Below, piece by piece: positions 535 through 55,613 of a stretch of DNA of 64,000 nucleotides (its first letter is position 1; every line of letters begins with the position of its first letter). The notes beneath the pieces were generated by a model. The model did not search any database and was not told the origin of the DNA. It saw only the letters and a program-made list of their open reading frames with translations. Location of the stretch: the NCBI GenBank assembly GCA_000182565.2, contig KQ257466.1. One strand, written 5' to 3'. Source of the stretch: Spizellomyces punctatus DAOM BR117 (lineage: Eukaryota). A program made the translations under genes and the position numbers.

Positions 535-1454
535 TCATTTCTTGCTCGTGTTCGTGTTGGTGTTCACGGGTTGGCCAGTCCCCTCAGCCTTCTTTCTCGA
601 CGCCCAATAGTTTTGCCCATACGACACAGTCAACTCTTCTCCTGGGTACAGAGGCTTGATCGACACGTAGATCGGTCTCCACAGATTATTCCACGGAACG
701 TAAACAACATCACAGTTGGGATCATCATCATGGTTTACAAATCTCGCAATGTTGCCGATAAATTGGGAATCAACACCCAAGGCCATGATATTCCCATTCT
801 CATCACGAATCCGACTGTAATAATGCCATTCGTAATCCGTTGATCGCGACGAATTCACCAGCATGCCAGAATACTCGGTAATGAACGCATAGGGAGGGAT
901 ATACGCATCGGTAAACACTCCAAACTTTTTAGCTTCCCCCGTCCATTGAACGTAAAACCGTCTATCGTTGGTAATAAACTTATCCAGAATAGGTCCAAAC
1001 ACACGGGCATAATTATCGTATAATTCCTTTTCGGCGACGTAGTACTCGTCTTTTGTCAAGTCGTGGGATTCAATGTACGGTTTGAGAGAATCGGGGATAA
1101 TAAGGTTGTGAGTGTGTCGGAGGCCGAACCATGTTTCGAAATCTTCGGGGTAGAACCGACGGGTTTTCCAGGCTTCGACCGCGGGTGCGGCTGTTTCCAC
1201 TGTACCCGCAGTGGATGGGAACAGTGTTTGGATCTTTTCCAATTTCAGTGCCTAAGATTTTTGACAAACAGCAAAATTGCAATGAGCATCTTTTGCTCAT
1301 TTCCGCCCCTTGGTTCTCTAAACTCCTGTTCTTTTACCTGACTCCCCAACAAGATTCCAGCAATAAAAGTAATCGACAAGACAAAGTACCGCTTGGCACT
1401 CGACGACCCTTGCGAAATGGGCTTGTACCCCTTTTGTGTATGCGCTTGACCCAT
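535..1454 (-). CDS. SET-domain methyltransferase with N-terminal hydrophobic anchor (2 exons; intron 1252-1337)
   Basis: SET motifs GVFT..EYSG, GNIARFVNHDDDPN, GEELTVSYGQNYW. A GT..AG intron joins MGQAH...RYFVLSITFIAGILLGSQ in frame to ALKLEKIQ. Confidence 0.88.
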
Positions 1455-1619
1455 CCTTGTTAATATGTGTAAAAGAAGGAAACTGGGATATGGAAGAGAG
1501 AGGAGGGAATCACTCATAAGTTTCCTTTAAATACTCGCCATTGTCTTTCTACCCAAAAAGATTGGGTTCCCCATCCAATATGAAAGTCAACGATCCAGAT
1601 TAGTTTTTGAAACAACGTT

Positions 1620-2740
1620 TCATTTAAGGTTACTCGTTGTGCAGCGCCACTGGGCCGCGTACCATGACTGTGCCATGGATGGGACCATATGGCCGGGGGG
1701 TAAATCAATTGATGAGTGGCTTATTAGCAATGCGAGAGGGGAGTACAAGGCGGCGGTTACTGTGGGTGGATCCGACGGTAACTTTGCGAGTGGACAAAGA
1801 AACCCCCGCGGCAAGTTGACAAACGAAAGAAGTTTGCAAATAAAGAGAACAAAACTCGCAATACCAGCCGTTTACTGTACAGTGTGGAAATGGATGGCAA
1901 GGGCAATAGCCGTCATGTTTTGAAATATAGGACACTCCCACTTTTCCATCCAATTTGATTTTTTCATTGTCTCATTAGCCGCACTCGGAATGACTCGGCA
2001 AGACCCCCATTGCAGAACCCGACATCTTGCGACAGTTTATGGTATGACGAGTGTAAACAACTAGGTCTCTATTCAAAAACAAACCAGTCGGCGTCATTTT
2101 CGTCTCCTGCCCATATATGGGATCATCACGCCAAGAACCCGCAATATACGGGACATGGTTCAATTCATAGCGGTGGACAAAGTGCCGATATGACGAGTTG
2201 TTAAACAATAGGGCTTCATTTGAAAGCAGTGAGAGACTGTACAAATCCCCCCATTTGTCTCCTTCCCCCATACACGGGATCGACCTGGAAATCTAAAGAG
2301 GCAATGGACGGTGGGTGGAAATGAGCCGGGTATGACGGAACTTTATAAATAACAAGTCAACTGTAAAGTTCTGTACCACAATGGCCATTATATCTCTTTC
2401 GCCCAGTTTACTTTGACCCATCCCATGCCAAGCAACACCCGCATAAAGAAATCTATGGCGTCAGTTCATGGGGACGGGTGGTAAGAGTTTCTAAAATAAA
2501 AACACTGTAAACAGGTTGAATTCGGTAAAAGAATTCACCAGACTATTACACCTTCCAGCACTCAACAACAATAAACAAAAGAAAACAACACACAAGGCAC
2601 AAAATACCCGCATCTTCCCCTCACAATTACCATTGACGTATTGCAACCCTCGCACTCTAAAAAAGCGGTCCATATCTGAACCATTCAACATCCCCCAAAT
2701 AAAATCTTGTCCCCCAAAAACCAAAACAATAGTTACCTAT
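1620..2740 (-). pseudogene. Probable degenerate multi-exon gene of unknown family
   Basis: Protein-like segments (DFIWGMLNGSDMDRFFRV..., GDKWGDLYSLSLL...IAGSWRDDP, NWMEKWECPIFQNMTAIALAIHFHT) flanked by plausible GT..AG introns. They are interrupted by in-frame TGA/TAA and at least one frame break. Confidence 0.4.
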
Positions 2741-3071
2741 GTATAGCACACATAAAAAAGTGTCTCTCTTGTAATCACCCACTGGTACCAATAAAAGACA
2801 AGTGTTCCAAATCGATGAGTGGTAGAATTGAGCGGCTCACTTCACAACAACACACACAAAACCCACACTTGCCAAAAATAAATCCACTCGCTGAACCGTG
2901 ATTTGATAAGGTATTTTATTAAGTTACGGAGGGAGTGTTCAATTTGGGCAAGTTTCGTATTTTTTTTATTATTATTAGAGTATATAAAAGTAAGCAGTCC
3001 CCAGTTTTTTTCCTTCCTTGCTCCATTTCGGTTTATTTCCGTATTTTGCGTGCGTTGCATCGCTTGTTGAA

Positions 3072-4696
3072 ATGAATATGGCTCCTTCAACAAATTCAAC
3101 TGGTGTTGATGATGATCAATGGAAATGGGATATGGTTGTGCAATCAGTATATGGTTCAGTAAGTGTTACAAAAAAAAATAGAATGTACCGTTCGTTTTTG
3201 TTAAATTTCGACTTTTGAATTTTTCTGATTTTTAGTCGATTGTGTCGATTATTGCTTCGAGTTTGGTGTTGGTTGCGTATGGGTTTATGTATTGGTTACG
3301 ACCCGCTCAGGTAAAAACCATCATCATTTTGAAAAAAATGTCAATATCCGCACCAAACAAAAAAAAAAAACTAAAACATGCCCTACATGTACCATTATTA
3401 TTAGGCAAATCGCATATCCCTCCGCCTAAGCGTCATCATCGCCTTTAGCGACATATTCTACGCCCTCTTCCTCCTCATCTCCAACATCCCATCCGTAACA
3501 GAAGGCCCAACATGCACATCCTCCGTCTACCTCCAATTCGCATTCGAATTACTCAGTCTATTCGCAACAGCAGCGATTGCCTTGAATTTATTAATGGTGT
3601 TTGTGTTTCGGATGGAGGCGAAAAAGAGGTTGGAGAGGTGGTATTATGGCGTAGGTGGGGTTTTGGCTTTTGGGTTACCGTTGATTGCGCTTGTGGCGGG
3701 CCGGTTGGGGTGGGATGAAGGTAAGAGTTTTATTGTTTTTTTTTACGGTGCAACAAAAATGTGAAAAGGGTTTACTAATTGGTATCTTTTCTTTGGGGCA
3801 CATTTTAGTGAATGAAGAGTGTTGGATTAGATCTGCAAATGATAGCAAAGCTTCAACCATGGCATGGAAATGGTAAGTCCCGACCTACAAACAGAACTTG
3901 AACCCATATCTACCTTTTCACATCGTCCCTAACCCATCCTTTTTTTAACTTCAAATAGGGGTATCCTCTACTTTTGGGTAGCAGGCATCAGCCTCTTTTG
4001 CACAGTCGTAACCATCCTCGTCTACTTTTTCCTAAAACGCACGGGCGTCCCACTCCCAACAACCGAATCCACTCCCTCAAACCCAAACAACACAGTCCTC
4101 TTTCGACGAACCCAACGTATCATCCAACGAGCTGTATCCCGTATTGTCGTGTATTGTCTCGTACCCATTGTTTCTCAGTTTTGGAATATTGTTTTGGATG
4201 GGTTGTTGGAGGCTGGAAAAGATCCTTGGTGGGTTTATGTTTTAGCCAATGTATTTAGTGGGTTACAGGTAAAAAAACCGTTGGTGACGTTATTTCTGGT
4301 CGTCTTTGAAAACCCGACACTCACCCCCTTTTTTTTATGATATAGGGCACATTTAACGCCCTCGTCTTTTTCACAATCGACCCAGCAGTCTCCAACATCC
4401 GCGAAGAACTCCGCCGTCGCATCATCAAAAAATACTACCTAACCTCAACCGTCCCCCAAACCCTCTTTGAACGCTTCCGATACGCACTCATCCAAAAAAC
4501 CCTGCTCCGTAAACGAGATTTGAAACAACCTTCAGTAATAAACAAGAGTTCTGCATCGGTTTTGCAGAGCGAGACGAAGACGAGGCCGTCGCAGTTTCGA
4601 TCGGAGGATGTGGATTTGGTTCAGCATGCGAAACCGGGTTTGGTTGAGAGTGGGGTTGCGAGAGAGGGGGAGGCGGATGTTATTGCGTTTTTGTGA
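3072..4696 (+). CDS. 7TM GPCR, cAMP-receptor-like/Git3-type (about 6 exons)
   Basis: Spliced product has seven hydrophobic helices: SIIASSLVLVAY, RISLRLSVIIAFSD, C..SVYLQF..LLS, WYYGVG..LPLI, ECWI loop, RIVVYCLVPIVSQ, LQGTFNALVFFTIDPAV. Canonical introns, e.g. 3721-3808. Confidence 0.88.
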
Positions 4697-5309
4697 TACC
4701 AGATTTTTTTTTACCTTTTTTTTGGGGGGGTTGGGTTTTTTTGTTTAAATAAAAAGTTTTTGGATTATTTGTCCCGGTTTAACTTGCATATCTCCTCGTT
4801 AATGACCATGTGGGATACTCTACGTGTTGCTCTATCAATACATTTGCCACAAGCACAATGACATCTTGATCTGGATAAAACATGTACGGTATTTACTCAT
4901 CATCCCACTTAAAAGCGCTTTTATCAAATTGCGGTTTTCTGCATGAATTGTTTGATTCGTTGCTGTTCATTAAGATGGCGTTATTAGCAAGGCAATAGGG
5001 TGTGATACGAGGTTTTTTATTTTAGGTAGAGTTTGACTAAAACTGGTATGTACGGGCAGAATCGTTGCAAACATGGTCTTGATATCATCAGAAGAAATAC
5101 ATCACATTACAGGACCCAACCCGAAAGGACATACCACTATTCGCCCCACAATCCGCTGTCCCTCTCGATCCTCATGAAATCCCCCACTCGAATGCATTAA
5201 GGTATCCCTTACGTAATCCCATATCTCCACCTACACGTGCATTCGTTGACGATCTTGGGTATCGCGGGGCGGTTGTCATTTTACTCTCGACGCACCATCT
5301 ACATAAGTC

Positions 5310-16339: not shown

Positions 16340-16709
16340 TCTAAAACGATATCACAGTTCAGGCAAGGCAGCATTGGACAGGTTTTTTAACGCTTGCGGC
16401 AAAAAGGACACTAAAGCCGCTTACGTCACGGCCTAACGATCTCGATCGCAAAGCTGCCCTGCTCAACTTGCGGATAAACAGAAAAACGAAATGCATCATG
16501 TCAAAATGAATATATTTCAGCTAATGGCTATCCCATCTCTTCTTGAGTGAGCCTGCGTACGATATCTCGAATATACAAAATTTTCTGCAATTCATCATAT
16601 ACATGTCCCGCCCTAACATTACGCGGGGTTGCTACGGGTTGCTACATATCCGACCCAAGTGTTTTCCCATCGTGCCCAGGAATACTCTCTCATCCAACGG
16701 ATCAACGGA

Positions 16710-17182
16710 TTACTTCTTTCCCATCTTCTCGTACGCGGCTTGAATGTCCCTGCAAGCCGCGGAAGCTTCGCGGCAAGACTGAGCGCAAGTCTGGCAGTGA
16801 TCGGTTTTGTGCTGCGAGAAAGACAAGAGAGATATAGCATCGTAATACCGAAATGTGGAAAACAGCAAAGACGTACACTGGCGCACATCTCAGCACAGTG
16901 GTCGCATGCTTTGGCGCAAATAGCAGCAGTCTCGCCTGCGTGCATGGAATTGACGGACATCAAGCGCATGGTAACATTACATAGTTCTGTCAAACATACA
17001 TGTCCATAAGTAAGTCACTCACACCATTGCACAGACAACGTGAATTATATACCAGCACAAGCTTTGCAATGGCCGTAACAATCCATGTTTTCTTCGATAG
17101 CGCGGTTAGCACATTCTTCGCAGGTCAGCATACATTGAGCAAGAGAGTTGGAATGCTTCATGCGGAATTTAGCGTCCATCAT
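16710..17182 (-). CDS. Csp3/DUF326-like four-helix-bundle copper-storage protein, 113 aa with 15 Cys (introns 16987-17052, 16812-16876)
   Basis: Spliced protein MMDAKFRMKHSNSLAQCMLTCEECANRAIEENMDCYGHCKACAELCNVTMRLMSVNSMHAGETAAICAKACDHCAEMCASHKTDHCQTCAQSCREASAACRDIQAAYEKMGKK has repeated CxxC/CxxxC helices. Exon lengths 130+110+102 = 342 nt give a clean frame. Confidence 0.88.
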
Positions 17183-17970
17183 TATATGATTCAGTATTGG
17201 GGACTGTGTAGTTGTGACTGGTGGATAGGCCTAGATTGGTAAAGATTTGGAATGTGGGGAAGAAGCTCGTGGGGTCAACCTTTAAAAGCGAGTGTGGGGT
17301 AATTTGAAGCCTGACGTTTGGTTTGGCTGTGTTGAGTTGACTACACTGGGCAAATATACCGCGGATGGAGTGACGGGTTTCTACCTGGCGGGTTTGCACA
17401 GTACCAGTAATGTGTGCGTCACGTTCTCCAGTGCACACTCATGCTTGCTCGTGCACAAGTCCCGTCAAGCCATATTACCAGAATCTTAATCGGAGGAGGA
17501 CACTTCACACCAACAGATTGTCCCCTGTCACGGTTTTGATGGGTCGCTATCTACCCCTATAAAAAACTGGCAGAAACAAGCATGGGAGCTGCTTTCAATA
17601 TCGTCAAGCAATATTTTCGATTGACTATCCAAATGCTGTTGACACGAGGAGTGGTACCGAAGCATGAGTGATTGCGAGCGAAAAGTAGCTGCACCACGGC
17701 ATCCAAAACTGCTGAGGAGGCGATCCTGTACCTGTCATAGTGTGTGGGCAAAAAGGACTGAAGAGTCTGCAGATAGATGCAGAATGAGATGAAATGCAAG
17801 ATGCCTCCTTCGATTTAGGCAAATGAACTATGCACAAGCTCCATCATGAAAAACGGGTCCAATACAAAACATGAACGGTGCAATTACTATCCCTTGCGGC
17901 CCATCTATGAGAGGAATATTCTGCGGTTGCCACCTGCATACATGCATGACTCAATATATCCAGTCTTTTT

Positions 17971-18498
17971 TCTATATAAACCCCCCTCTTCTTCTTCCCT
18001 CTCGTTTCTTTATCCTTGACTCTCAAAGCATCTGCCCAACGCTCAAGTCTCAAGTCCATCATGAGAATACTGCTCTGGTGCCGAGGACCTTCCCGATGAC
18101 TACAACCAACTGGAACCAGCAACAATTACTCGGAACCAACAAAACTGCTATTATGCTGCCACATTTGTTGAGCTTGGTTGGTATCTACCAACAGCATTTC
18201 TTTTCATTCTGTCATTCATCTCGCTGACATGCAGTTTTTTATAGTCTCCAAGCCTTGTCACTGAAGATCCTCCAGCTTGCGAGTCTCCCCAATGTTGCAA
18301 AGACTCTGGCTTCAATGCCATCAAGAGTTCTGGATTACGTATTGCGTGTATAATTGTCTAGTAGTTAGTTAGCTTTTCCGAACCGGTTGTCGCTGGTTTA
18401 TTCCCTGGTGTGGAGGCACTGACATTTGTCTTTGCCAATACACTAATCTTGTCACTATTTATGCAGCGTGCACCAGAGGTGGACATTTCAAGAAATAG
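17971..18498 (+). other. Small spliced transcription unit, copy A (lncRNA, or recoded/pseudogenised small-peptide gene)
   Basis: TATA at about 17973, ATG 18061, predicted introns 18181-18244 and 18339-18466. Colinear similarity to 54013-54510(-). Confidence 0.65.
18372..18411 (+). ncRNA. Conserved structured RNA block, copy A
   Basis: GCTTTTCCGAACCGGTTGTCGCTGGTTTATTCCCTGGTGT is 39/40 identical to the reverse complement of 54068-54107. It forms the stem AACCGG/CYGGTT. Confidence 0.6.
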
Positions 18499-18637
18499 AT
18501 CAAGTATTCATTTGATAACTTTGTACACAGAAATCCCAGAACTCTCAAACTTCAAATAAACGGTCATTCTTTAAAGTATTGAATTTCCTTTCCAACTAAC
18601 ATCCATTCATTCTTTCGCTGAAAACCTTTCAGACCCT

Positions 18638-19757
18638 CTAGTTTCCAGCAACGACACCGGGTTCATGGTAAGGGTAATGGTACTGCTTTGAGAAATGGTG
18701 CCTGCGAGCCGGGTGCCTGAAGCGAGGGAGAACATCCCTGTGAGGCACGGCTTCAGTCATAACGTAGCAGGCTACACGATAGAGTGCCAGCAAGGAGGAT
18801 GCAAGCCAAAAGTACTGCATGAGGGACACTTTTAGTTGGTGATATTCAGAACGTTGGAGAGAAATAGAACTTACCCCGAGGATTTTGATAAGAGCTGTGG
18901 AGTGCAGAAACCAGCCTTTGGGATAGCAAATAAGGTTAAGAAACCATGTTTAGAATAAGAAAATTATTCATCTAGATGTTACCTAGCACACCAAAGACGG
19001 ATCCCGTCGCCAGCGTGAATAAGGTACCAGTCCAAGCAAGATCCCGGAACATGCTACGCACAAAATCGGTTAGCGTTGACATCTTTCCACACCCGATATT
19101 GACGGTAAATATGGCGCAAAACACTTACGCAGCAGCCGTCAAAACATAAGTGAAAGCCGCCAGTGGAGCCATCCAAATGCCCCAACCAGCATTGTAATCA
19201 TAGCGATCGTTAAGAGGGATTGAGCCAGCACCCATTAGACCAAGGGACAAACTGACAGCGATATAAAAGCTGCCCCACATTGTGTGGAAGATCGAAGCAA
19301 GGGTATCACGAGCACTGCATTGTGATGTACATATCAGCACCAAAAGAAGGGTATGATGCTTGAAACGAGAAGAAACTCACTTGAAAGCCCACATTCCAGC
19401 CGCGAATTGACCGAATCCGCCAAATGTCAACACAAAAGGCCAAAGCCTGAAGGGAGTCTCGGGATTCCCGTACCACTCTGTCAACCACGTCGCTACAATG
19501 AACGTTGCCGTCGCATAGCTGGCCAGGCCCATAGCCGACGGAGGAGCAATAGGCTTAAGGTGTATTCGAACAGGTGGAGGCGCATTGGGAAGGTCGTACC
19601 CTCCGCCTGTTGCGGTGCCAGGACGATCAGAAAGGGCGCCTCCTGCATCGCCTAGCGTGTATGTACTAGGGTATGTATAGTTTGTCGGGTTGTTCAAGGC
19701 TTGCGCGGGGGCGTCGCTTGGCTGACGACTCCCACGGAGGGCATTCGGGAGGTGCAT
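18638..19757 (-). CDS. GPR1/FUN34/YaaH (ADY2/SatP-like) acetate/ammonia transporter (multi-exon)
   Basis: IAPPSAMGLASYATATF, FGGFGQFAAGMWAFKARD, HTMWGSFYIA plus further TM helices across GT-AG introns. Confidence 0.88.
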
Positions 19758-34900: not shown

Positions 34901-37900
34901 CATGAGTATTTTCCAGGACCCTGGCGTAAAGAATTTGGACCGTCAAGCGATGATATCAAAAGATGGAAATACAAATACTTACACGCGGGTTGAAGGTTAT
35001 AGGTAGCTCAGTATAACTTTGTTCAAGGGCGGCAATATGTTTCTTCTCTTTTGACGGATCAATGGCCGGTTTCACAACTATCTCATTCGGTCCGCGGAAG
35101 AAAGGAGAAGAGCATTCCACCTTTCGAGGAAAATTCAGACCACAAGATAAACGTCGAACGCAATAACCAGCTCTACCGGCTCTCATTTAACTCACCTTAA
35201 ATCTTATAGGCCGCCTTGCCACACCAGCTGTTTCCTCTTTGCCTTCTTCTCCCCTCTCCTTTATGCTGCCTTTCGCCTTTGGCGCTCTCGTCTTGGGACT
35301 CCCCAAAAGAAACTGAACAGCTTTTTCTTTTGCCTGATTCACAGGTGCAATTCGAATACCCTTTTCTAATGTATCACCAGCTTTACTTGTCCACAGGAAG
35401 GTTTCCATAGGAGGTGGTGGCAGGCCCCGGCCAATGACTTGGTAGGAAAATTCTCCGGCATTGGGATCGAAAAAATGGAGGATACAGTCATGGGTGCCTA
35501 GCTGTGGTAGAGTCAGAAATCACAATCAACGTCCTTTTGGCAGATAGATAATTGGCTTACTTCGAATGGAAGAAACGTTATTTGAATAGTGGCCAGTTGG
35601 TGGGCTTCCAAAGCAAGTTCGTCGGTACTGGTCCGGAAGGAAGATGGAATTGCCTGTTGTGATGCACCCTGCTCTCCCCAAAAAAACCCCACCATCAAAA
35701 CAAAATCAGGATAAAGAAAAGAAAAAGACGAAAGCACACGCCATACCTTGGTCTGTTTCACCGTAATGGCAAATCTCCCCTTTACATTCAGCGGATTCAC
35801 AACCTCTACATTCACAACTGTGGGAGGAACACCATACATGACCCCATCGATCTTTATAACCCGTTTCGGCGCCGCCTCTTTCACGGCACTCTTCAATTCA
35901 AACACCAGAACACTGCCACTATTCAATCCCATCCTCCTACTCCTTAGCACCAAACTTCCCTGCACGGATCGAAAGAACTTTGAAACAAATTCAATTGAAA
36001 GTGTAGCGGTACCCTTTGGTCCAATGGATATTGCCCCGTTGGTGAGATCGCGTAATAAAAACTCGTCTGACCCTTGCAAGTCGGGGACATAGGTTAGGGA
36101 GCGGAAGGTCGGGTTGACGAGCTCAATGTCCCTTGTGATATGCTCATGGAGAGCTCCGTGGAACTCAACAAGCGATTTTGGTATAAAGTTTGGTAGAATC
36201 TGGTATAAGAACAAAGTGAGGAGGAAGGCGTCCACTCCGTTGCTTTGTCCCTTGGAGATACGCTCAACTGACATACAGCTAGCCGTGCACCCGGGAAGGA
36301 GGTCAAGGAGGGCGTTAGCTACCAGGGAGGCGTTATGGAGAAGTTGTTCGGTTGTTGTTGGATCTGGGTGCAAGGTCGAGAAATGGGTTACAGACATGTT
36401 GGGTAGATGGCTTTGGATGATATATGCGAAGGGCAGGATGCTTTGGAAGTCGGTCGTAAAGTTTTTGAAAGCCTTGGGAGTACCGGTCGACTTTCCAGCA
36501 TGAACCAAGCCAAACATTAATTTTCCTCTCATGTATGCAAGCAACGAAACCCACTACCTTCCAAAAGTGATAAGCAGCCCATCTCAACAACACCCCTTCA
36601 CAATCGGTTCCCTTTGGTGTCCCTTGCCACACCATCTCAGCTTCATCCTTTCCCACCCCGGGCAAGCTTCGAAAGTGCCGCGGCGTAACCAGAAGCGTAA
36701 CATATACCCGAACCACCTGGGCTATTAAGGTGCACCAAGCTTCCTTAGAAATAAGGGGAAAGTGGTGCTCGAGTTTGCGGTTATATTCATGATACTCGTC
36801 GTGGAGGGAGGAGCCCACATCGGTTTTCTAAAGTTTAGAAGTAGGAGAGTCTCAATATAAAGCTTGACATGATTAAAACTGAAGAGCTCACCATCTGCTC
36901 AATCCTCCATTGTATGATCATTTTGTAGTCTTCAAATGTCATTAGAAACTCTGGCTTGACGGCACTCAAAAGGGCCCCCAAACTTGTCAAGTGGGTTAAG
37001 ATATCGCAATACTGTTTATAGAGTGCTTTGGTCCTTTCTTCCGGTGAGCTTCCTAAACAAATTGTTAAATAAAACTAAAGTTACCCGTTGATTGTCTCGT
37101 GCATTTACCTCCCGGAGTCGCAGAGGAAGGAGACGTTGGCGGTTTCTTGCCCGAAAGCGACTGAACCAAATCGGACAATATTTTTCCGTTGGAGGCTGTC
37201 AGCTGCTCCGGAAAAGATCGCCATGGCTAATACACAAATGCCAGTTATTAGCTGGTACAATTTCGCGGTGTTGGATTTCACGACGCTTATTTACCTCCAT
37301 TGCACCCAAATGGTCTTCGAGCCATCTCAAAAGAGTCTCACCAAAATCTGAATAGAACTTATCAACAGATTGCAAGTTTAGTCCGCTTTCCAAGGGAATC
37401 CCGCAGGGTGTTTTGAAAGGACGGGGACCGGTCAATATTCGATTTCTGGAGTTTTGTTGTAAAGCAGTTAGAAGATTAGGACAAATTTCCCTTAACATAG
37501 CAATGCATTACCTCTTTTGATTTTCCGTCAAGTTCTCAACAGGTTTCTTTTCCTCCTTGTTCAACCAGAAAAACGGTTGCAAACTCAACAATGACCCATC
37601 ACTCGTTCCATGAACTGGCAAATAAAATGCACGACGCCCATCATTCGAAAACTCGAATTTCGCCATAAAAGTTGCCGGTTGACCTTCTTGACAAATGAAT
37701 TTCGCTACGATTGTCAACTTTTCTCCATCACTTTTTAGCAATTTTCCTTCAGGGAAGACGAGTTCCACCATTCCGCGTAGTTCTTCAGGAATTGTCTCGC
37801 GAACTTCTGTTCGCTCGCAGCCGTAGTTGATAATAGAGAAAACTGCCATCGCTTCAGTTGCGCGCGGAACAATCGGGAGGAAGAGCTCCGGAGGATCGAA

Positions 37901-40900
37901 CGCCAAGGAAGGTTCCACTCCAGTACCTTGAAGAGGAAGTGATAGTAAAGGTTTGGGCCCCAAATAATCCAAATGAAGAGGAACCGCGGCTTCAAACAGT
38001 CCCGTCGTCTCCGGGTAGAATGAAATTGTGACCGGATGCGCTTCACCAGGTCCCAAAATTCCTCTCCATGGCTCAATTTTGAATACCTTTTCGCTATCGT
38101 CCAGTGAATCGAGATCAAACCACCATTCCATGGACCGTTTACTAGTATTGGTTAAGGTGATAGTTTCTTTGGCGGCTATGCGCAGGTGCGACACGGAATT
38201 GGGACCTTGGTCCCGGTGGACTACGCGGTTTTTGAAATTGATGGAGGACTTGGAAACAGCTAGAGGGGAAGCTATGCCTTCCGCATCGACGTGAGTCGTT
38301 GGCGTTTGTGCAGAGCCAATGATATATATTGGGAGATCAAAGCTGTGCTTCTTCACGATCGTGGGTCGGAATGAAATGTCAACCGAAATCGTTTCCGTCG
38401 GAGGCACCTCCACCAAATAGATCCGCCCCTTCCCTTGAGACTCATCTAATCGTCCATGCATATCCTCACGAGCTCCCAGAGTAGCGTACAAAGGATGCGA
38501 AGGTCCCAATGCTCTGATCAAATGCCCTTGCTTGGTAGGGCTTTCCGTCTCCCTTACTCGACGATGCCGCCCAGAAGTAGTCCTAGCTCTTGGGGCAGAC
38601 GCCTTCCTAGAAGCAGCAAGGTTATCACGAATTCGTAGTTCGAAATCTGGATGATTTGTCAAGTCAACGACTACACCCGCAGGAACTGAAGCTTTGTTGG
38701 TCAGCGCCATACGCTTGAACCCTGTTGAACCAATGATCGTTCCTTTTCCCATGTCACCGCCTTGGAACTCAACATCCACGTCAGGAATCCTGGCATCGTA
38801 CTTGAACGGTAGGCGAATAATGCGCCCGCTTCCTATGACGGTAATGAGGATCACGTCTTCGACTGTCCCAGGGTGGGTAGGGAGAGCTTGGAGGGTGAAT
38901 TCCAGTGTTCCAGATGGAGCAATACTTCCGGATGCTGGTACAATGCTGACTTCCGATGCAATCTGCTCCTTACGAGCCGAGAAGATAGCAGGATGACCTG
39001 AAGTGTTTTTGATGCGGATAGAGGCTTTTCCCCAAGGAGTGTCTGGTGTGCTCCCGCTTTGTTGTGATAGGCTAAAAATCGTTGGATACACTGCGTTCCA
39101 ACGTTGCAAACCTCCTTCGGCATTATCTGCGTACCCCACAGGCAGTATTCCCAAGTTCAAAGGTCCTTGCTTTATGGACGTTAGCAGAGAACATGTAGCT
39201 GGTGGAATGCTTCCTTTGCAACGAAGACTAAGAGTTTGAGTGATTGTCTTCTCCCCCTCAAACTCATGGAATACTTGCAGTTGGAGTGTATCTTCGCGGG
39301 TGGGCCTCACGCCAGGAAGGTAGGTAATACGGACCTTCATGTTACTTTCTGGACCAACGAAACCTGAGGCCGGCTCTACTGCAAAGCACCCTTCCATTCG
39401 AGTCGCATCAAATTCCGCTGACTGATCACTATCTGGGATAATCCATTGGAAACCAGCTCCGTAGTTTCCTTTATTGATCACTTTAACCTCAGCTGAGGCA
39501 CTAGGTATTGCCGTCGTTTCACGCATCTCCACGTTAATATCGACTGTGTCCGTGGACAATTCCAGCGCAACTGGAGTGACCTCTACTTTCACGGGTATAG
39601 AATACTTGTACCGCCCGTTGATCAAGTACGTAATTTTCTTTTCAATGATTCCCGGTTCGTGCGAGCAAACTCGTACTTCAAATCCTCCTACACTCATTGG
39701 GGGAATCACCAAATGCTGCGGCATAACTACCACACCATTCGACTCGTCATTGCTGAGTTGGTCGTCAAGGTCTAGAATGGAGATGTGAATAGGATGCCTG
39801 CCCGGTGTAGCATTCAAGAAATTGAGTGGGGTAATATTGATAGAGTGGGTTGTTATATTGCCAAAATCAATAAGGGAATGTGCCGTGAAGATGTTGGCGA
39901 GATCAGCGCCACTGAGTGGGATGTCAAAGGTTGATGCTGCTGCTGTACTCGGCGGAAGCATCGGACTGACAGATTTGGCTTTGGTTGAGGTTGGTGTTAA
40001 AAGTTTTTGAAACAGTGCCCGGAGTTTGCGAGGATCATTGTTTGTGTGTTGAGAGTCGTCGGATCGCAGGTGTGAGCTTCTCTTGTTGTTCGACTTGCGG
40101 AGTTCACCTTCGTCACTCTCGGTGTCCGGGCAATCAATCGGTTCAGGGGCAACAAGTCCATTTTCCCGATCGAAACTCCCGTAGTTTTCAGTACTATTCA
40201 GCTTATTCGGATCAATTGCTACTCCATCATCTCCTAGTCGGCATATCCTCATCCGTCTCACTCTCTCTGCTCGACACTGACGTAAATGGTCGGTGTAATG
40301 CTTTCGGTGTGCAACTTTTTGCTCCCACTCTGGATTGGTCTTTAGTGGTGAGGGCTGCTCAGAGAGGCAATCCAAACTTGAGAACTTGCTCATTGTACCA
40401 CGGCCTGTGACAGTCCCCCAATCTGCAAACTCCGTGTCGTGATCAGGCAAGCCATCGACATCATCCTTACTGCCGCTATTTGTTTTTGAATGAAATTGGT
40501 TTTCTGGTTGTGCTCGAAACCGGGCGAGGTAAGAGTCGACAGAAACTTTCGATGCACAGACGCCATGAAGTGTAATTGCGAGCTTTTCCACAAGTTTGTC
40601 CCCTTCAAGCCTCACCAATCCCACTGATCCCACTTCCGTAGAATCACGAGCATGAGGGCCGATAGATTCGATCAGGCAGGGCATGCTACAATGAAAATCA
40701 CCCAGCTGATTTGGCTTGAATGAGACACGCACTAAGACCTCTTCGCCAGGTCGCAAAGTGCCCACGGTTGGCACCGCGTGAAAGTGCGCAACGGACAAAA
40801 ACCTGAAGTGAAAACTCATATTCTCTCCGTTGTTCCTCAGTACCGCTTCGGTGACATTCTGCTGGCCCTGCGGTGTGGCCGCAAACTCGATTGTACGTGG

Positions 40901-42406
40901 CTGGAGTACCGCCCGAATAGGACAAGCCCGTCCTGTCAAGGTAATCGGGACACTCTCCTCCCCTTCACGAACGTAAGGATGTGCAGAAGAATTCACAATC
41001 TTGAGTTCCATCGGAACCTTGTATGCTCTAGGTAATGGCGACTGGAGTGACGATTTGAACCCTCGGGAAGGGGTAGGAAGTCGAGGAGAGAAAGCGAACT
41101 CTATTGGAACAGATTGGTAGGGTTCTAAGGTGCCTTCTGATGGGTAGACTGACATTGAAGCGCGCAAGTCGGCATCCTCGGACGCATTATCCGCTGCTGT
41201 ATCGTCCGTGCTGGTGTTGGCAGTTTCGAGAAGGATTTGACTGAATACCATAGGTTTGCTCTCCCCTGTGTGGGTGATGACCCTATGGAGTGCAAAAGTA
41301 TTCAATACGTCTCAAAATTCGACCTTACCAACACAACGACAACCAATACGCCAAGGAAGGAATTGCGTATCTTACCACCGTACAGGGGTTGGCCCGCGAT
41401 TCTCCAATCTGACGGGAATACCCGCACTCTGTGCGTAATAAATCGTCCCGAAATCGATATTCCCAGGATCCAAGGTGATAGTGTTTCCCGCATTTCTGAA
41501 GCGCAATTTATGGTCAATTACTGTCGCCTTCAATCTCACTGCAATCTCGGTATCTGCTTTAAGCTCCGAATTGGGTTTGGGAACGTCGCTGTCAAGCTTG
41601 ATCTTGACTGTATCAAGCAATTTGCCCACGATGTGTGGATAAAAGTCGATACGGAGGGAGCAGGATGACAGGAGGGGACGTGTGGCAGTCGTTACTCGAG
41701 ATGCTGGCTGAGGTTGAGCCAAAGCTTCCTGTGGTGCTGCCAGTGTAATGGAGGAAGGTGTTACCCGAATTGGTATCTTTGAATCCCAAGTACACGAAAT
41801 TTGGGCCCTCCTTTTGCCAGTGTTCCTGACTTCCACATATCTCGTAATCCACCCATCCTCCAACCCCATCTCCTTTTTTGCAATGAGTGTTCCAAAATCT
41901 ACCTCTTCGTCTGCTTCCAAGTGCGGTCCAGCAGGGTACGCCTCCAATTTCACATCAATATCCTGACCTTCTTCCACAACAACGCGTAGTCGATCCACAA
42001 AGGCGTCGACACCATCCCCCGCTCCACTACTCTTCTTTGAAGCCCATTCAGCAGAAAACTCGACGACAACGCTTACATCCAACCCAGGGGCAACCAGAAT
42101 CCATCCAGTCTCCAATTCTTTCACCCGAAATGCGCCAGTAGTCGGCGGCTGGATCGCGATGCGTTGGACCCGCCGCGTGAGGTTGGTAAGCTTGATGGTA
42201 CGAGATTGACAAACGTTCGGCTCGTAGTCTTTGATTAGAACATGGCGGGGTGTAACACGGATTGAATGGAAGGATTCTTGCAAATGTTTGTCTCGTCTGA
42301 TCGCTGACAGGGTGGACTTGGTGCTGACGGCGATGAGAGATGTGAACTGGGTTGGGCGGGTGCGGTTATTTGGCGCCCCTTTCGGGGACGGCTTTACCGC
42401 CATCAT
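31921..42406 (-). CDS. CFAP47: Cilia- and flagella-associated protein 47 (large multi-exon gene; ASH/Ig-like repeats plus CH domain)
   Basis: Many ASH-like repeats (DFG..., P..G.L.P), IINYGCER, LPVHGTSDGSLL, CH-like EGVLLRWAAYHF..FKNFTTDFQS, GEFWYQLKL. The introns I inspected are GT-AG. Confidence 0.82.
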
Positions 42407-42827
42407 CCTGGTCGGTGATCTAGGACTCGGACTGAACAGATCAATATATATGTCTCCCGAGTTGTATGCCGGTTCCAGGAGTGCTTGATGAAAAAGTCCG
42501 ATCCAAGATCTTAATGTAAGGTGATCGGAGTTTGGATTGGGTAAGGTTTTGGAACTTTCGAAAATTTAAGGGCTGATCCTCGTACCAAAAGGAAGTCTCG
42601 TGGCTAACTTTCGGGCTCTGTGGTTGCAACTTGCAAAGATATAGGTGCTAAAAGATACGTGCCAGATTTTAACATAATATTATATTTGGATAAGGCATAC
42701 CTATAATTATTCCACAATCTCGTGAATACATATAATCTCTATCGCTTTATTACATGTCTTCTACTGTCCTAAAATATGATATCTAATTTACCTAATAATA
42801 TACACAAGTCAGAAGATTCGAAAGAAC

Positions 42828-50705: not shown

Positions 50706-53991
<3,286 letters not shown>

Positions 53992-54012
53992 TGATCATGT
54001 AAGATGGATTTG

Positions 54013-54510
54013 CTTTAACACCAGGGGCTTGGTAGTGTAGAGGGGACAGAAACTGGCACTAGCTACTACACCAGGGAATAAACCGGCGACAACCGGTTCG
54101 GAAAAGCCAAGTAATTCCCTCCTTACAACTAAGTACTACTAGGCCCAATTACACATGCAATACATAACGGTTGTTCTAACCGGGTAACTAAGCCCACCAC
54201 ACGAGAGAAATCCTACTAAGCCCTTGATTCCGAAATTCTTTAGTCGGAGGATGTTCAGATACTAATTAAACCAGAATTAGACTCGGAATACGCGTGGGAA
54301 AATACGAAGACAACACATACCTGCGATCGTTGCAGCATAGTAGTAGCAATGTTTGCAAGGAGTTATGTTGTTGTTGTAGTCGGGTGGGCGAGGTCCTCGG
54401 CACCACCACATCGGTGTTCTCATGATTGATGAGAGTTGGGCAGATGCTTGTGAGTCGAGGATGGGTAAAGAGGAAAGAGGGAAGAGACAGCAAAGGCCCC
54501 CTTTTTATAG
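54013..54510 (-). other. Small spliced transcription unit, copy B; contains a 58-aa ORF (54423-54321 + 54261-54188)
   Basis: TATAAAAA at about 54509, intron 54262-54320, predicted second intron 54013-54163. Peptide MRTPMWWCRGPRPPDYNNNITPCKHCYYYAATIAVSEHPPTKEFRNQGLSRISLVWWA. Paralogous to 17971-18498. Confidence 0.65.
54068..54107 (-). ncRNA. Conserved structured RNA block, copy B
   Basis: GCTTTTCCGAACCGGTTGTCGCCGGTTTATTCCCTGGTGT on the - strand; 39/40 identical to 18372-18411. Confidence 0.6.
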
Positions 54511-55613
54511 ACCTTTGGCATGCGCCTCACCGCAGTTTTAAAAAAAAACAACATTACATTAGCATGCTACACCGCTGCATGCCTCACCGCTTTGGGCGAC
54601 AGCGGGGGTGCTGATTATGCGATATGACTAACCGGATTAATCCGGATAATAATGAGTTCTAGTGCCATTTTCAATCACCGCCACACTATGCATGCTCTGG
54701 TCCTTTGGTCCTCCGTGGTTCTTCAGGGGCCCCTTCGGACAGGTGAGAAGGAGGTCGAATATCAAAAATACGTGATATACCACGCGACCATGTCGGGAGT
54801 TTCCGATGGGCATCTTGTTACTGATACCACCAATGCTGCGGCGTATCCGGAACGAACGTCATTTTGACGTTGCAGGATTGCGATTGGCAGATATATGGAA
54901 CTTCTTGTTGGATCATGTTGGATCATCATCTAAAATGTCTATTCATTCACAGAGAGTGCTGATAAACCATGTCCAAACAAACGATGCCACCCAAGTTCTT
55001 CCCAACGTGCTTAACCCATGACCCTATGCCACCCGTCTATACTGCCATGGAACTTGCAGCACCACCACCAATTGCACCAACTACCATCAAGACAAACAAG
55101 AACCCGCATCAGCAGGAGAGCGCGATCGTTCTTTGTTCAAAAGCGCGTCACACTCCGACATGACTAAGCCCACGGGGTTCCAATGGGAGACCCGCAGATT
55201 TCGGACAAATGTGTTGGTAATGCCAATCCAGGATAAGACTGCGCATACCACAAGCTTTTCCCCCGCATCCTTTTCGTTTTTCTCCCTTGAACCTTTTTTC
55301 ATCATCCCCGTAGCATCTTGTCTCTCGTCCATTCCCTTACGATTATCGACTCACTCGTACACTACCGCATACTTGATTTCTTCACACCTTGCGACACACG
55401 AGTTATACCCTCCGTCCTCACTTTCCCGCGTTTCTATCATTTATTTTCGCTCACTACTCCAAATCACAGAAGTCGGAGGTTTGTCATCGGTTCTATAGGA
55501 GTTTTGTATGGTTCTTTACTGTCGTAGTTGGATGTTTACTTACTCGCACCTAGTTTCAGACTGCATCTTAGCTTCCTTCTGATCACGACATTGGAGCTTT
55601 TGTACTGCGCAAC

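Follow-up and report, generated by a model that had tools for sequence, protein, structure and literature searches.

The conserved element at positions 18339-18466 of the analysed stretch of Spizellomyces punctatus DNA (64,000 nucleotides, referred to as the window) is the 3'-terminal two-hairpin domain, lying within the last 110 bases, of a short, spliced and very abundant RNA. This assignment follows from the lack of splicing across 18339-18466, from a peak of read depth inside the element, and from an RNA end at about 18445-18460. A first-pass annotation, made from the sequence alone, had placed the element within an intron and proposed a splicing switch or an intron-encoded RNA. The supposed intron switch thus becomes an abundant spliced RNA family with neither a conserved reading frame nor an Rfam match. 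In the preferred, still tentative, reading, the two-hairpin tail is a module that binds protein and stabilises the 3' end in a lineage-specific family of non-coding RNAs.

The element is part of one of two small paralogous units, named copy A and copy B. Their features are as follows.

Copy A unit: about 17970-18460, plus strand; small paralogous unit.
TATA box, copy A: 17973-17980, plus strand; about 40-45 bases upstream of the start of plus-strand coverage, aligning with the TATA region of copy B.
Exon 1, copy A: 18020-18180 (start approximate), plus strand; from the depth and joint tables; contains the 5' block (18012-18046), the first ATG (18061) and the 15/15 block (18076-18090).
Intron, copy A: 18181-18244, plus strand; 64 bases, GT..AG, defined by read joints; the sole read-supported intron.
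Exon 2, copy A: 18245-18455, plus strand; unspliced through the supposed intron to the RNA 3' end at about 18445-18460.
Conserved block upstream of the element, copy A: 18335-18365, plus strand; contains GTATTG and the CTAGTAGT motif.
39/40 block, copy A: 18372-18411, plus strand; an unpaired 5' flank is followed by hairpin 1, an unpaired linker and the 5' strand of hairpin 2.
Hairpin 1, copy A: 18380-18399, plus strand; eight pairs, including two G-U pairs at the ends, and a 4-base loop; pair 18385/18394 covaries among paralogues.
Hairpin 2, copy A: 18406-18445, plus strand; closed by TGGTGTG/TACACTA, with the RNA end at or just past its 3' strand.
Copy B unit: about 54511-54025, minus strand; small paralogous unit.
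TATA region, copy B: 54502-54511, minus strand; from sequence and alignment with copy A.
Predicted intron, copy B: 54262-54320, minus strand; 59 bases, GT..AG, placed by analogy at the position homologous to the copy A intron.
39/40 block, copy B: 54068-54107, minus strand; hairpin 1 at 54099-54080.
Hairpin 2, copy B: 54033-54073, minus strand; closed by TGGTGTAG/CTACACTA, marginally stable.

Judging from their sequences, copies A and B are old and strongly diverged paralogues. Both carry the same blocks in the same order, namely the TATA region, the 5' block, the ATG region, the 15/15 block, the end of exon 1, the intron position, the block with GTATTG and CTAGTAGT, the 39/40 block, and TACACTA. 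In the alignment, 30 of 35 positions are identical in the 5' block and 12 of 14 in the ATG region, and the 15/15 block (18076-18090 in copy A, 54405-54391 in copy B) and TACACTA (7/7) are the same in both. The stretches separating these blocks are barely alignable. Overall, 223 of the 410 columns of the spliced-RNA alignment are identical (~54%), and the 39/40 block is its best 40-column window. The genomic alignment contains 169 transitions, 164 transversions and 156 gap columns. Since transitions and transversions are about equal and gaps are many, the conserved blocks are taken to be kept by selection and not by recent copying. RIP was rejected as the cause of the divergence, as these counts are not RIP-like.

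The identity of 39 in 40 bases between 18372-18411 (plus strand) and 54107-54068 (minus strand) had been reported in the first-pass annotation and was reproduced by pattern search and alignment. As a fact of sequence, it lies far beyond chance. A 34-base pattern of the block, allowing up to three mismatches, matches exactly two sites in the window and none in 100 shuffles. No third copy was found in the window by blastn or nhmmer, the next best nhmmer match having an E value of 0.73.

The window consists of gene-dense fungal DNA and includes an AlkB-type ORF that falls among eukaryote clusters, most commonly of Ascomycota. Zinc-cluster, fungal-specific transcription factor, bZIP, SET, TRP, GPR1/FUN34/YaaH, and helicase domains are encoded, and no transposon domains were found in the window. 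Copy A is convergent with a minus-strand GPR1/FUN34/YaaH gene and so faces its 3' end, not a promoter. Copy B lies about 150 bases upstream of the likely start, at 53919, of a RecQ-type helicase gene. A scan of the window for bacterial-type promoters and terminators was uninformative.

Reads were mapped on the 841 bases from 17880 to 18720, covering copy A. They were taken from X19 (stranded RNA-seq with the same species label), from X9 and X12 (environmental RNA), and from X1. Within X19, 138,628 reads from 26.4 million records were placed on this stretch. The contigs of X9 and X12 may derive from the same or a close species and carry no claim of cross-species conservation. X5 and X7, which have small shares and are labelled as other organisms, were left out of the evidence. 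The first mate in X19 seems to give the RNA strand, since the neighbouring GPR1/FUN34/YaaH gene on the minus strand is covered by first mates on that strand.

Copy A is transcribed from the plus strand, from about 18020 to about 18445-18460. Plus-strand depth in X19 rises from 0.5 at 17967-17995 to 951 at 17996-18024 and 27,328 at 18025-18053. In the middle of the unit it ranges from 1,000 to 5,000, dropping to 4 at 18199-18227, a bin within the intron whose adjoining bins have 1,092 and 1,312. The joint 18179->18244 (cut +1), corresponding to the intron 18181-18244, is carried by 642 + 2 reads, and a minor donor four bases upstream (joint 18175->18244) is used in 8 reads. These are the only GT..AG joints listed in X19. 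Depth then climbs from 5,021 at 18286-18314 through 12,818 at 18315-18343 and 34,952 at 18344-18372 to 44,279 at 18373-18401. It then falls to 18,065, to about 10,060 at 18430, to 4,593 at 18431-18459, and to 64 at 18460-18488. The 3' end of copy A is bracketed at about 18445-18460, with no sharp end among the X19 ends listed. According to the depth, which gives an approximate position, the RNA ends at the ACACTA strand or a few bases past it. Once the 64-base intron is removed, the RNA is about 370 bases long.

These data bear directly on the original intron proposal, in which pairing over the branch point controls splicing or the intron encodes a small RNA, and which is now scarcely credible. 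The stretch 18339-18466 does start with GT, end with AG and contain the branch-like ACACTAAT. Such borders and motif are necessary for a spliceosomal intron but not sufficient, and removal from the transcript, the defining property, is not seen for copy A in X19. Among the X19 joints listed, none spans 18339-18466 (18338->18467), with the supposed donor covered 5,000- to 12,000-fold, whereas the neighbouring intron has 642 joint reads. Locus-like depth is equal before and inside the supposed intron (5,021 at 18286-18314, about 10,060 at 18430), coverage peaks inside it, and no exon follows downstream of 18460, where the X19 depth is 64.

GTATTG is present in both copies as annotated, but its use as a donor is contradicted by the lack of a listed joint in copy A in X19. 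The assignment of ACACTAAT as the branch site of copy A fails likewise, as the stretch is not spliced in X19. A splicing switch over the branch point and an intron-encoded non-coding RNA or snoRNA both depend on an intron that is absent from the X19 RNA-seq, and Rfam gives no snoRNA or riboswitch match.

Introner-like elements, as described in PMC3609843, are multi-copy spliceosomal introns of fungi with a stable predicted structure, and their existence favours the intron proposal. The element shares with them its multiple copies, predicted structure, GT start, AG end and branch-like motif. It differs in being unspliced, and the repeated unit is a whole small gene with promoter and conserved blocks.

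Minimum-energy folding yields the same fold for both copies, in which a single strand leads into hairpin 1 and a 6-base single strand separates this from hairpin 2. In the copy A fold, hairpin 1 extends from G18380 to U18399 with its eight pairs and 4-base loop. The sole difference within the block, T18394 in copy A versus C in copy B, keeps the stem as had been predicted, with G-U in copy A and G-C in copy B at pair 18385/18394. The proposed pairing of TGGTGT (18406-18411; 54073-54068) with ACACTA (18440-18445; 54038-54033) was also recovered in the minimum-energy folds of both copies, given enough 3' sequence. A seventh pair of hairpin 2 is G-U in copy A and A-U in copy B, and the spacer inside this hairpin is poorly conserved (13 of 28 aligned columns).

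The copy A domain 18372-18457 has a z of -3.24, with 0 of 200 shuffles as good. Its hairpin 2 alone reaches -17.9 kcal/mol (z -4.0), a value that none of 200 shuffles equals. Copy B has a weak hairpin 2, at -9.4 kcal/mol (z -0.88), a stability matched by 35 of 200 shuffles. When the upstream block is included, the longer stretches do not fold unusually (z -1.65 and -0.63). Between the 5' and 3' blocks, TGGTGT/ACACTA is the only long-range pairing complementary at matching positions in both copies; the other eight listed 6-mer pairs are scattered or rich in G-U.

Several paralogues of the family are expressed, together accounting for 138,628 of the 26.4 million X19 records. Of these reads, 134,794 overlap the copy A stretch only in part, and a likeness to it of 99% or more is seen in just 4,195. 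As the X19 reads are mostly partial and imperfect, the majority derive from paralogues. Furthermore, X19 depth on the conserved blocks is about tenfold that of the stretches between them, at least three different continuations beyond 18411 occur among the loose ends listed, and several sequences join the blocks.

The run X1 is probably DNA, because the intron is covered (41 versus 153 and 129 beside it), the contigs are exclusively unspliced, and the promoter is covered. In X1, 74 of 13,778 contigs fall on the 841-base copy A stretch. Their depths add up to 230 at the block, to 6-150 elsewhere in the unit, and to 2.6 in the unique flank 18460-18720. If X1 is DNA, these sums, which are only a rough guide, point to tens of copies in the genome. 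The family counts as multi-copy, with many distinct copies both in the genome and among the transcripts, two of them in the window itself.

Variant counts in X19 were taken on plus-strand first mates. Four positions of the stem and loop, 18384, 18385, 18389 and 18394, vary, each in 33-58% of reads, and no variant in the single-stranded flanks within the block is among those listed. The earlier description as near-invariant thus holds for the block between copies A and B, but not for the stem and loop among the paralogue reads. Position 18385 is changed from G to A in 16,468 of 44,374 reads. At 18394, 22,704 of 39,351 reads have C instead of T and 16,647 keep T. This last count is close to that of A18385, as expected if A pairs with U and G pairs with C. 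Linkage between the two positions is read from counts in X19 and directly from one X9 contig only. This contig, the sole one in X9 with A18385 (depth 13.8 of 103.9), keeps T18394, and C18394 makes up exactly the other 90.1. Both types recur in X1, where 11 contigs have C18394 and 7 have A18385. A C-to-T change at 18384 (14,967 of 44,907 reads) gives a U-G pair, and a G-to-A change at 18389 (15,900 of 42,678 reads) lies in the loop of hairpin 1.

The paralogue variants therefore keep hairpin 1 paired, as G-C, G-U or A-U. Three stem changes preserve pairing, one of which is a full exchange of G-C for A-U with copy A as the G-U intermediate; covariation support amounts to one pair plus one wobble-compatible change. 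The original view of a structured and transcribed element, conserved far above its surroundings, is borne out by these pair-keeping variants.

The same variants weigh on two explanations that assign no role to the RNA hairpin. According to the first, the identity of the block has no function and results from recent gene conversion between copies. Only two copies are fully readable, and short conversion tracts between dispersed repeats do occur. However, the flanks are common to at least 3-4 types of paralogue reads, the stem exists in several pair-preserving versions, and other blocks are conserved too and in the same order, which makes this explanation very unlikely.

The second places the conservation on double-stranded DNA. 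Zinc-cluster transcription factors bind paired CGG/CCG half-sites, and the stem of copy B reads CGG-six bases-CCG about 150 bases upstream of the helicase start at 53919, so that it might serve as such a site, for example for the RecQ-type gene. One half-site is broken in copy A, however, and both are broken in the A18385/T18394 type, which makes up 37-42% of reads. Copy A, moreover, faces the 3' end of the convergent gene and not a promoter, and the conserved flanks reach well past such a site. A zinc-cluster site is thus highly improbable.

The high copy number is also compatible with an unlikely alternative, in which the hairpin is the terminal or subterminal hairpin of repetitive, possibly mobile DNA, such as a non-autonomous rolling-circle (Helitron-like) element, a kind with conserved ends and a variable interior. 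The hairpin would then act in single-stranded DNA, with the RNA as a by-product of a captured promoter. As described in PMC5148889, a short hairpin lies close to the 3' end of Helitrons, and conservation is stronger at that end than at the 5' end. The family hairpin, of about 20 bases near the 3' boundary of a repeated unit, resembles this arrangement, and the 3' part is the more abundant in X1. The depth of X1, probably a DNA run, rises toward the 3' block to 230 versus 2.6 in the flank, with 74 contigs. In addition, a 43-base inverted repeat with 72% complementarity brackets copy B (score 46 versus a maximum of 41 in 200 shuffles), and compensatory changes would be expected in a DNA hairpin as well.

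Copy A, however, has no such inverted repeat (score 28 versus a shuffle mean of 26.9). The same paper, PMC5148889, gives 5'-TC/3'-CTRR as the canonical Helitron ends, with the hairpin 10-12 bases from the end, and asymmetric inverted repeats for Helitron2. Neither these canonical ends nor the Fusarium element ends printed there fit the family (PMC5148889). The family lacks the termini printed in that paper and consists of old copies with ordered blocks, a promoter and an intron, in contrast to Helitron and Helitron2 (PMC5148889). The copies are diverged and have conserved promoter and intron positions, not a uniform transposon-like similarity. B-like variants remain alike past 18411, and 18411 is thus not the end of an element. 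No transposase or Rep/helicase domain is encoded in the window except that of the ordinary RecQ-type gene, and the G-U intermediate in copy A is easier to reconcile with RNA than with DNA. The preferred reading of an independent RNA gene is supported by the conserved TATA and 5' blocks and by gene-dense surroundings without transposon domains.

A possible, though unlikely, alternative regards the element as a cis-element in the 3'UTR of micro-ORF mRNAs, acting in the control of stability, localisation or translation. The peptides would evolve fast, and the frame of copy A would be broken. The first ATG (18061 in copy A, 54423 in copy B), its good context and the next 15-base block are conserved between the copies. 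This ATG opens 58 codons in copy B after splicing, as would suit a micro-ORF, but only 12 in copy A. One X1 contig with a 2-base insertion behind 18097 (depth 7.74 of 28.8) would link the copy A ATG to a longer frame, but the insertion is present in 0 of 1,055 X19 reads. In copy A, all three frames are closed by stop codons at 18359-18372, just upstream of the 39/40 block, as would be expected where a 3'UTR begins.

The comparison between copies argues against a peptide. Copies A and B differ by indels whose lengths are not divisible by three, and they do not share a frame where their second exons align. A variant in X9 has 14 bases from the ATG to the 15-base block, versus 15 or 18 (loose end at 18068), which puts the block out of frame. 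The conserved blocks are identical in nucleotides, without synonymous drift. Just one frame, which has no start codon, is open through the 39/40 block in both copies; of its four variable sites, two would be synonymous, one conservative, and one not. This synonymy is no better an explanation than pairing.

Among 5.8 billion protein clusters, no relatives of the 48-residue copy B ORF or of the block-spanning frame were found (26-84 and 35-112 residues, respectively), and no protein of 26-84 residues shares three 5-residue words. Neither a frame kept between the paralogues nor known relatives, the marks of a protein-coding family, were thus observed, and the RNA family can be regarded as non-coding with about two-thirds confidence. 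A lipopeptide pheromone precursor was rejected, as a short ATG-led ORF with a prenylation-type motif at its end is lacking in both copies.

At gathering thresholds, Rfam has 0 matches in the whole window, and the covariance check that had been recommended for recognising a known family accordingly returned none. With E values up to 10, copy A gives two chance-level rows off the block (17.8 bits versus 70 and 11.4 versus 86), and copy B gives none. The statement that the element is not a TPP riboswitch, spliceosomal snRNA or C/D box RNA stands, as none of these is matched even at E up to 10. Specifically, TPP riboswitch, snRNAs, C/D and H/ACA snoRNAs including snR30/U17, U3, telomerase RNA, and hammerheads are unsupported by Rfam. 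tRNA genes and a tRNA-primer site were rejected, no tRNA having been found in the window.

H/ACA snoRNAs have two guide hairpins, a hinge box, and a single-stranded ACA three bases from the 3' end. Assignment to this class was rejected, as hairpin 1 is a plain 8-pair stem, the ACA lies within the closing helix of hairpin 2, and the RNA is about 370 bases long and TATA-driven. The loose likeness to snR30/U17 suggested earlier was not upheld, given the absence of an Rfam match and of H/ACA architecture. The family does share with snR30/U17 a short, pyrimidine-rich, conserved single strand beside a hairpin and an ACA near the 3' end. It differs in that hairpin 1 is too short for a guide pocket, the ACA is paired in the closing helix, and the gene is multi-copy. 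In box C/D snoRNAs, the C and D boxes are joined by a terminal stem; this class was also rejected, with no Rfam match and, by eye, no box pair common to both copies.

Sm-class snRNAs are characterised by a trimethylguanosine cap and by a uridine-rich Sm site between hairpins, the Sm site being a run of uridines. Like their 3' domains, the family RNA ends in hairpin-single strand-hairpin, which is also where it is conserved most, and it is TATA-driven, short, abundant and multi-copy. In contrast to them, it has no snRNA match in Rfam and no uridine run in the linker, and it contains a spliceosomal intron and a short ATG-led ORF. The linker between the hairpins is not uridine-rich, and a U-rich run is confined to some variants, in which it falls in the loop region of hairpin 2.

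The 3' stem-loop of animal histone mRNAs is a short conserved hairpin with invariant flanks, common to a multi-copy gene family and recognised by one binding protein. The family element may work in a similar way: throughout the family, a short stem with a 4-base loop lies near the 3' end between invariant flanks. However, its hairpin is unrelated in sequence, lies about 45-60 bases from the end and is followed by a second hairpin, and the family has neither a conserved coding region nor an Rfam match.

A 31-base degenerate pattern of the block has 0 matches in metagenome, viral and prokaryote genome contigs. A looser pattern with a free stem gave five loci (L001-L005), all bacterial-looking and without the hairpin, which were discarded as chance matches. 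A literature search on the sequence words of the family and on multi-copy fungal non-coding RNAs found nothing relevant.

In the preferred reading of a protein-binding, 3'-end-stabilising module, each gene of the family would produce a short Pol II transcript from its own TATA promoter, with one intron and no conserved reading frame. Hairpin 1 and its invariant single-stranded flanks may constitute the recognition site for a protein or RNP. The helix TGGTGT/ACACTA that closes hairpin 2 would tuck the 3' end of the RNA into a stem. The bound protein or RNP is hypothesised to define and protect this end, which would lead to the high steady-state level of the RNA. The 3' domain may thereby act like the hairpin-single strand-hairpin ends of other stable Pol II non-coding RNAs, and the variable middle of the RNA could evolve freely or have copy-specific functions. 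Several points count against this reading: hairpin 2 is weak in copy B, the conserved ATG, its context and the 15-base block can also be explained by a small ORF, and the high copy number also fits a mobile element.

A more specific and quite unlikely proposal is that the family represents an undescribed class of fungal RNP RNAs. Proteins common to the family would bind its conserved 5' and 3' modules, the tail serving as the core site, and the divergent middle would be a specificity or guide segment. Tens of such genes would be scattered through gene-rich DNA, a layout like that of guide-RNA families.

If the RNA is a functional non-coding RNA, the family would provide a rare example, in a filamentous fungus, of Pol II non-coding RNA genes forming a multi-copy family, and its 3' double hairpin would be a candidate protein-binding site. 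Should the family instead be mobile or encode micro-ORFs, the finding would be more ordinary, and gene models would still be corrected. An intron predictor would wrongly splice 18339-18466.

Copy A, the plus-strand one of two small paralogous units in the window (~17970-18460), has its promoter and TATA region (TATA box at 17973..17980) covered by a minus-strand transcript. This transcript spans 17909-17995 (-) with a depth of 52-255 in the stranded RNA-seq run X19, and ends at the start of the plus-strand copy A RNA. It may represent a divergent promoter transcript. Reading of the sequence also places a TGACTCA at 17947-17953, upstream of the TATA box, a putative site of the kind bound by the activator of the amino-acid starvation response. 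Upstream of the TATA region of copy B, the diverged paralogue on the minus strand (~54511-54025), the motif GCGGTG..CATGC is read three times (54518-54590, minus strand), and copy A contains one similar copy.

Both units share a conserved block of 39/40 identical bases, located at 18372-18411 (+) in copy A and 54068-54107 (-) in copy B. Directly 5' of this block, copy A contains four TAG triplets within 14 bases (18359-18372, plus strand), covering all three frames. At the matching position of copy B, TAG or TAA is present in two frames.

At its 3' end, the copy A RNA converges with the mRNA of its minus-strand neighbour, the GPR1/FUN34/YaaH gene, the two ends lying ~30-45 bases apart within 18445-18490. 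The two RNAs hardly overlap, with a depth of 64 on the plus strand and 18 on the minus strand in the bin 18460-18488 (X19).

Copy B is bracketed by a 43-base imperfect inverted repeat (54659-54701 and 54020-54062) with 72% complementarity. Its local alignment scores 46, whereas 200 shuffled sequences averaged 24.5 and reached at most 41; the same comparison on copy A revealed no counterpart around that unit. In the interval 53903-54107 (-), copy B is followed by a RecQ-type helicase gene whose likely start codon, at 53919, lies ~110-120 bases past the end of the unit. Gene and unit are encoded on the same strand, and the exons of the gene, in which a Helicase_C domain was detected, extend to 51185.

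Elsewhere in the window, a cysteine-rich ORF with CxxxC-type spacing lies at 16619-17014 (-), for which a Pfam search at E 0.001 returned no match; it possibly prompted the mention of copper in the first-pass annotation. Numerous Ig-like domains of the CFAP65/HYDIN/Cep192 (ASH/MSP) type are encoded at 37508-42565 (-), in very long ORFs of 1,267 and 397 residues. The domain names derive from cilium and centrosome proteins, a surprising association for a fungus that has zinc-cluster factors.
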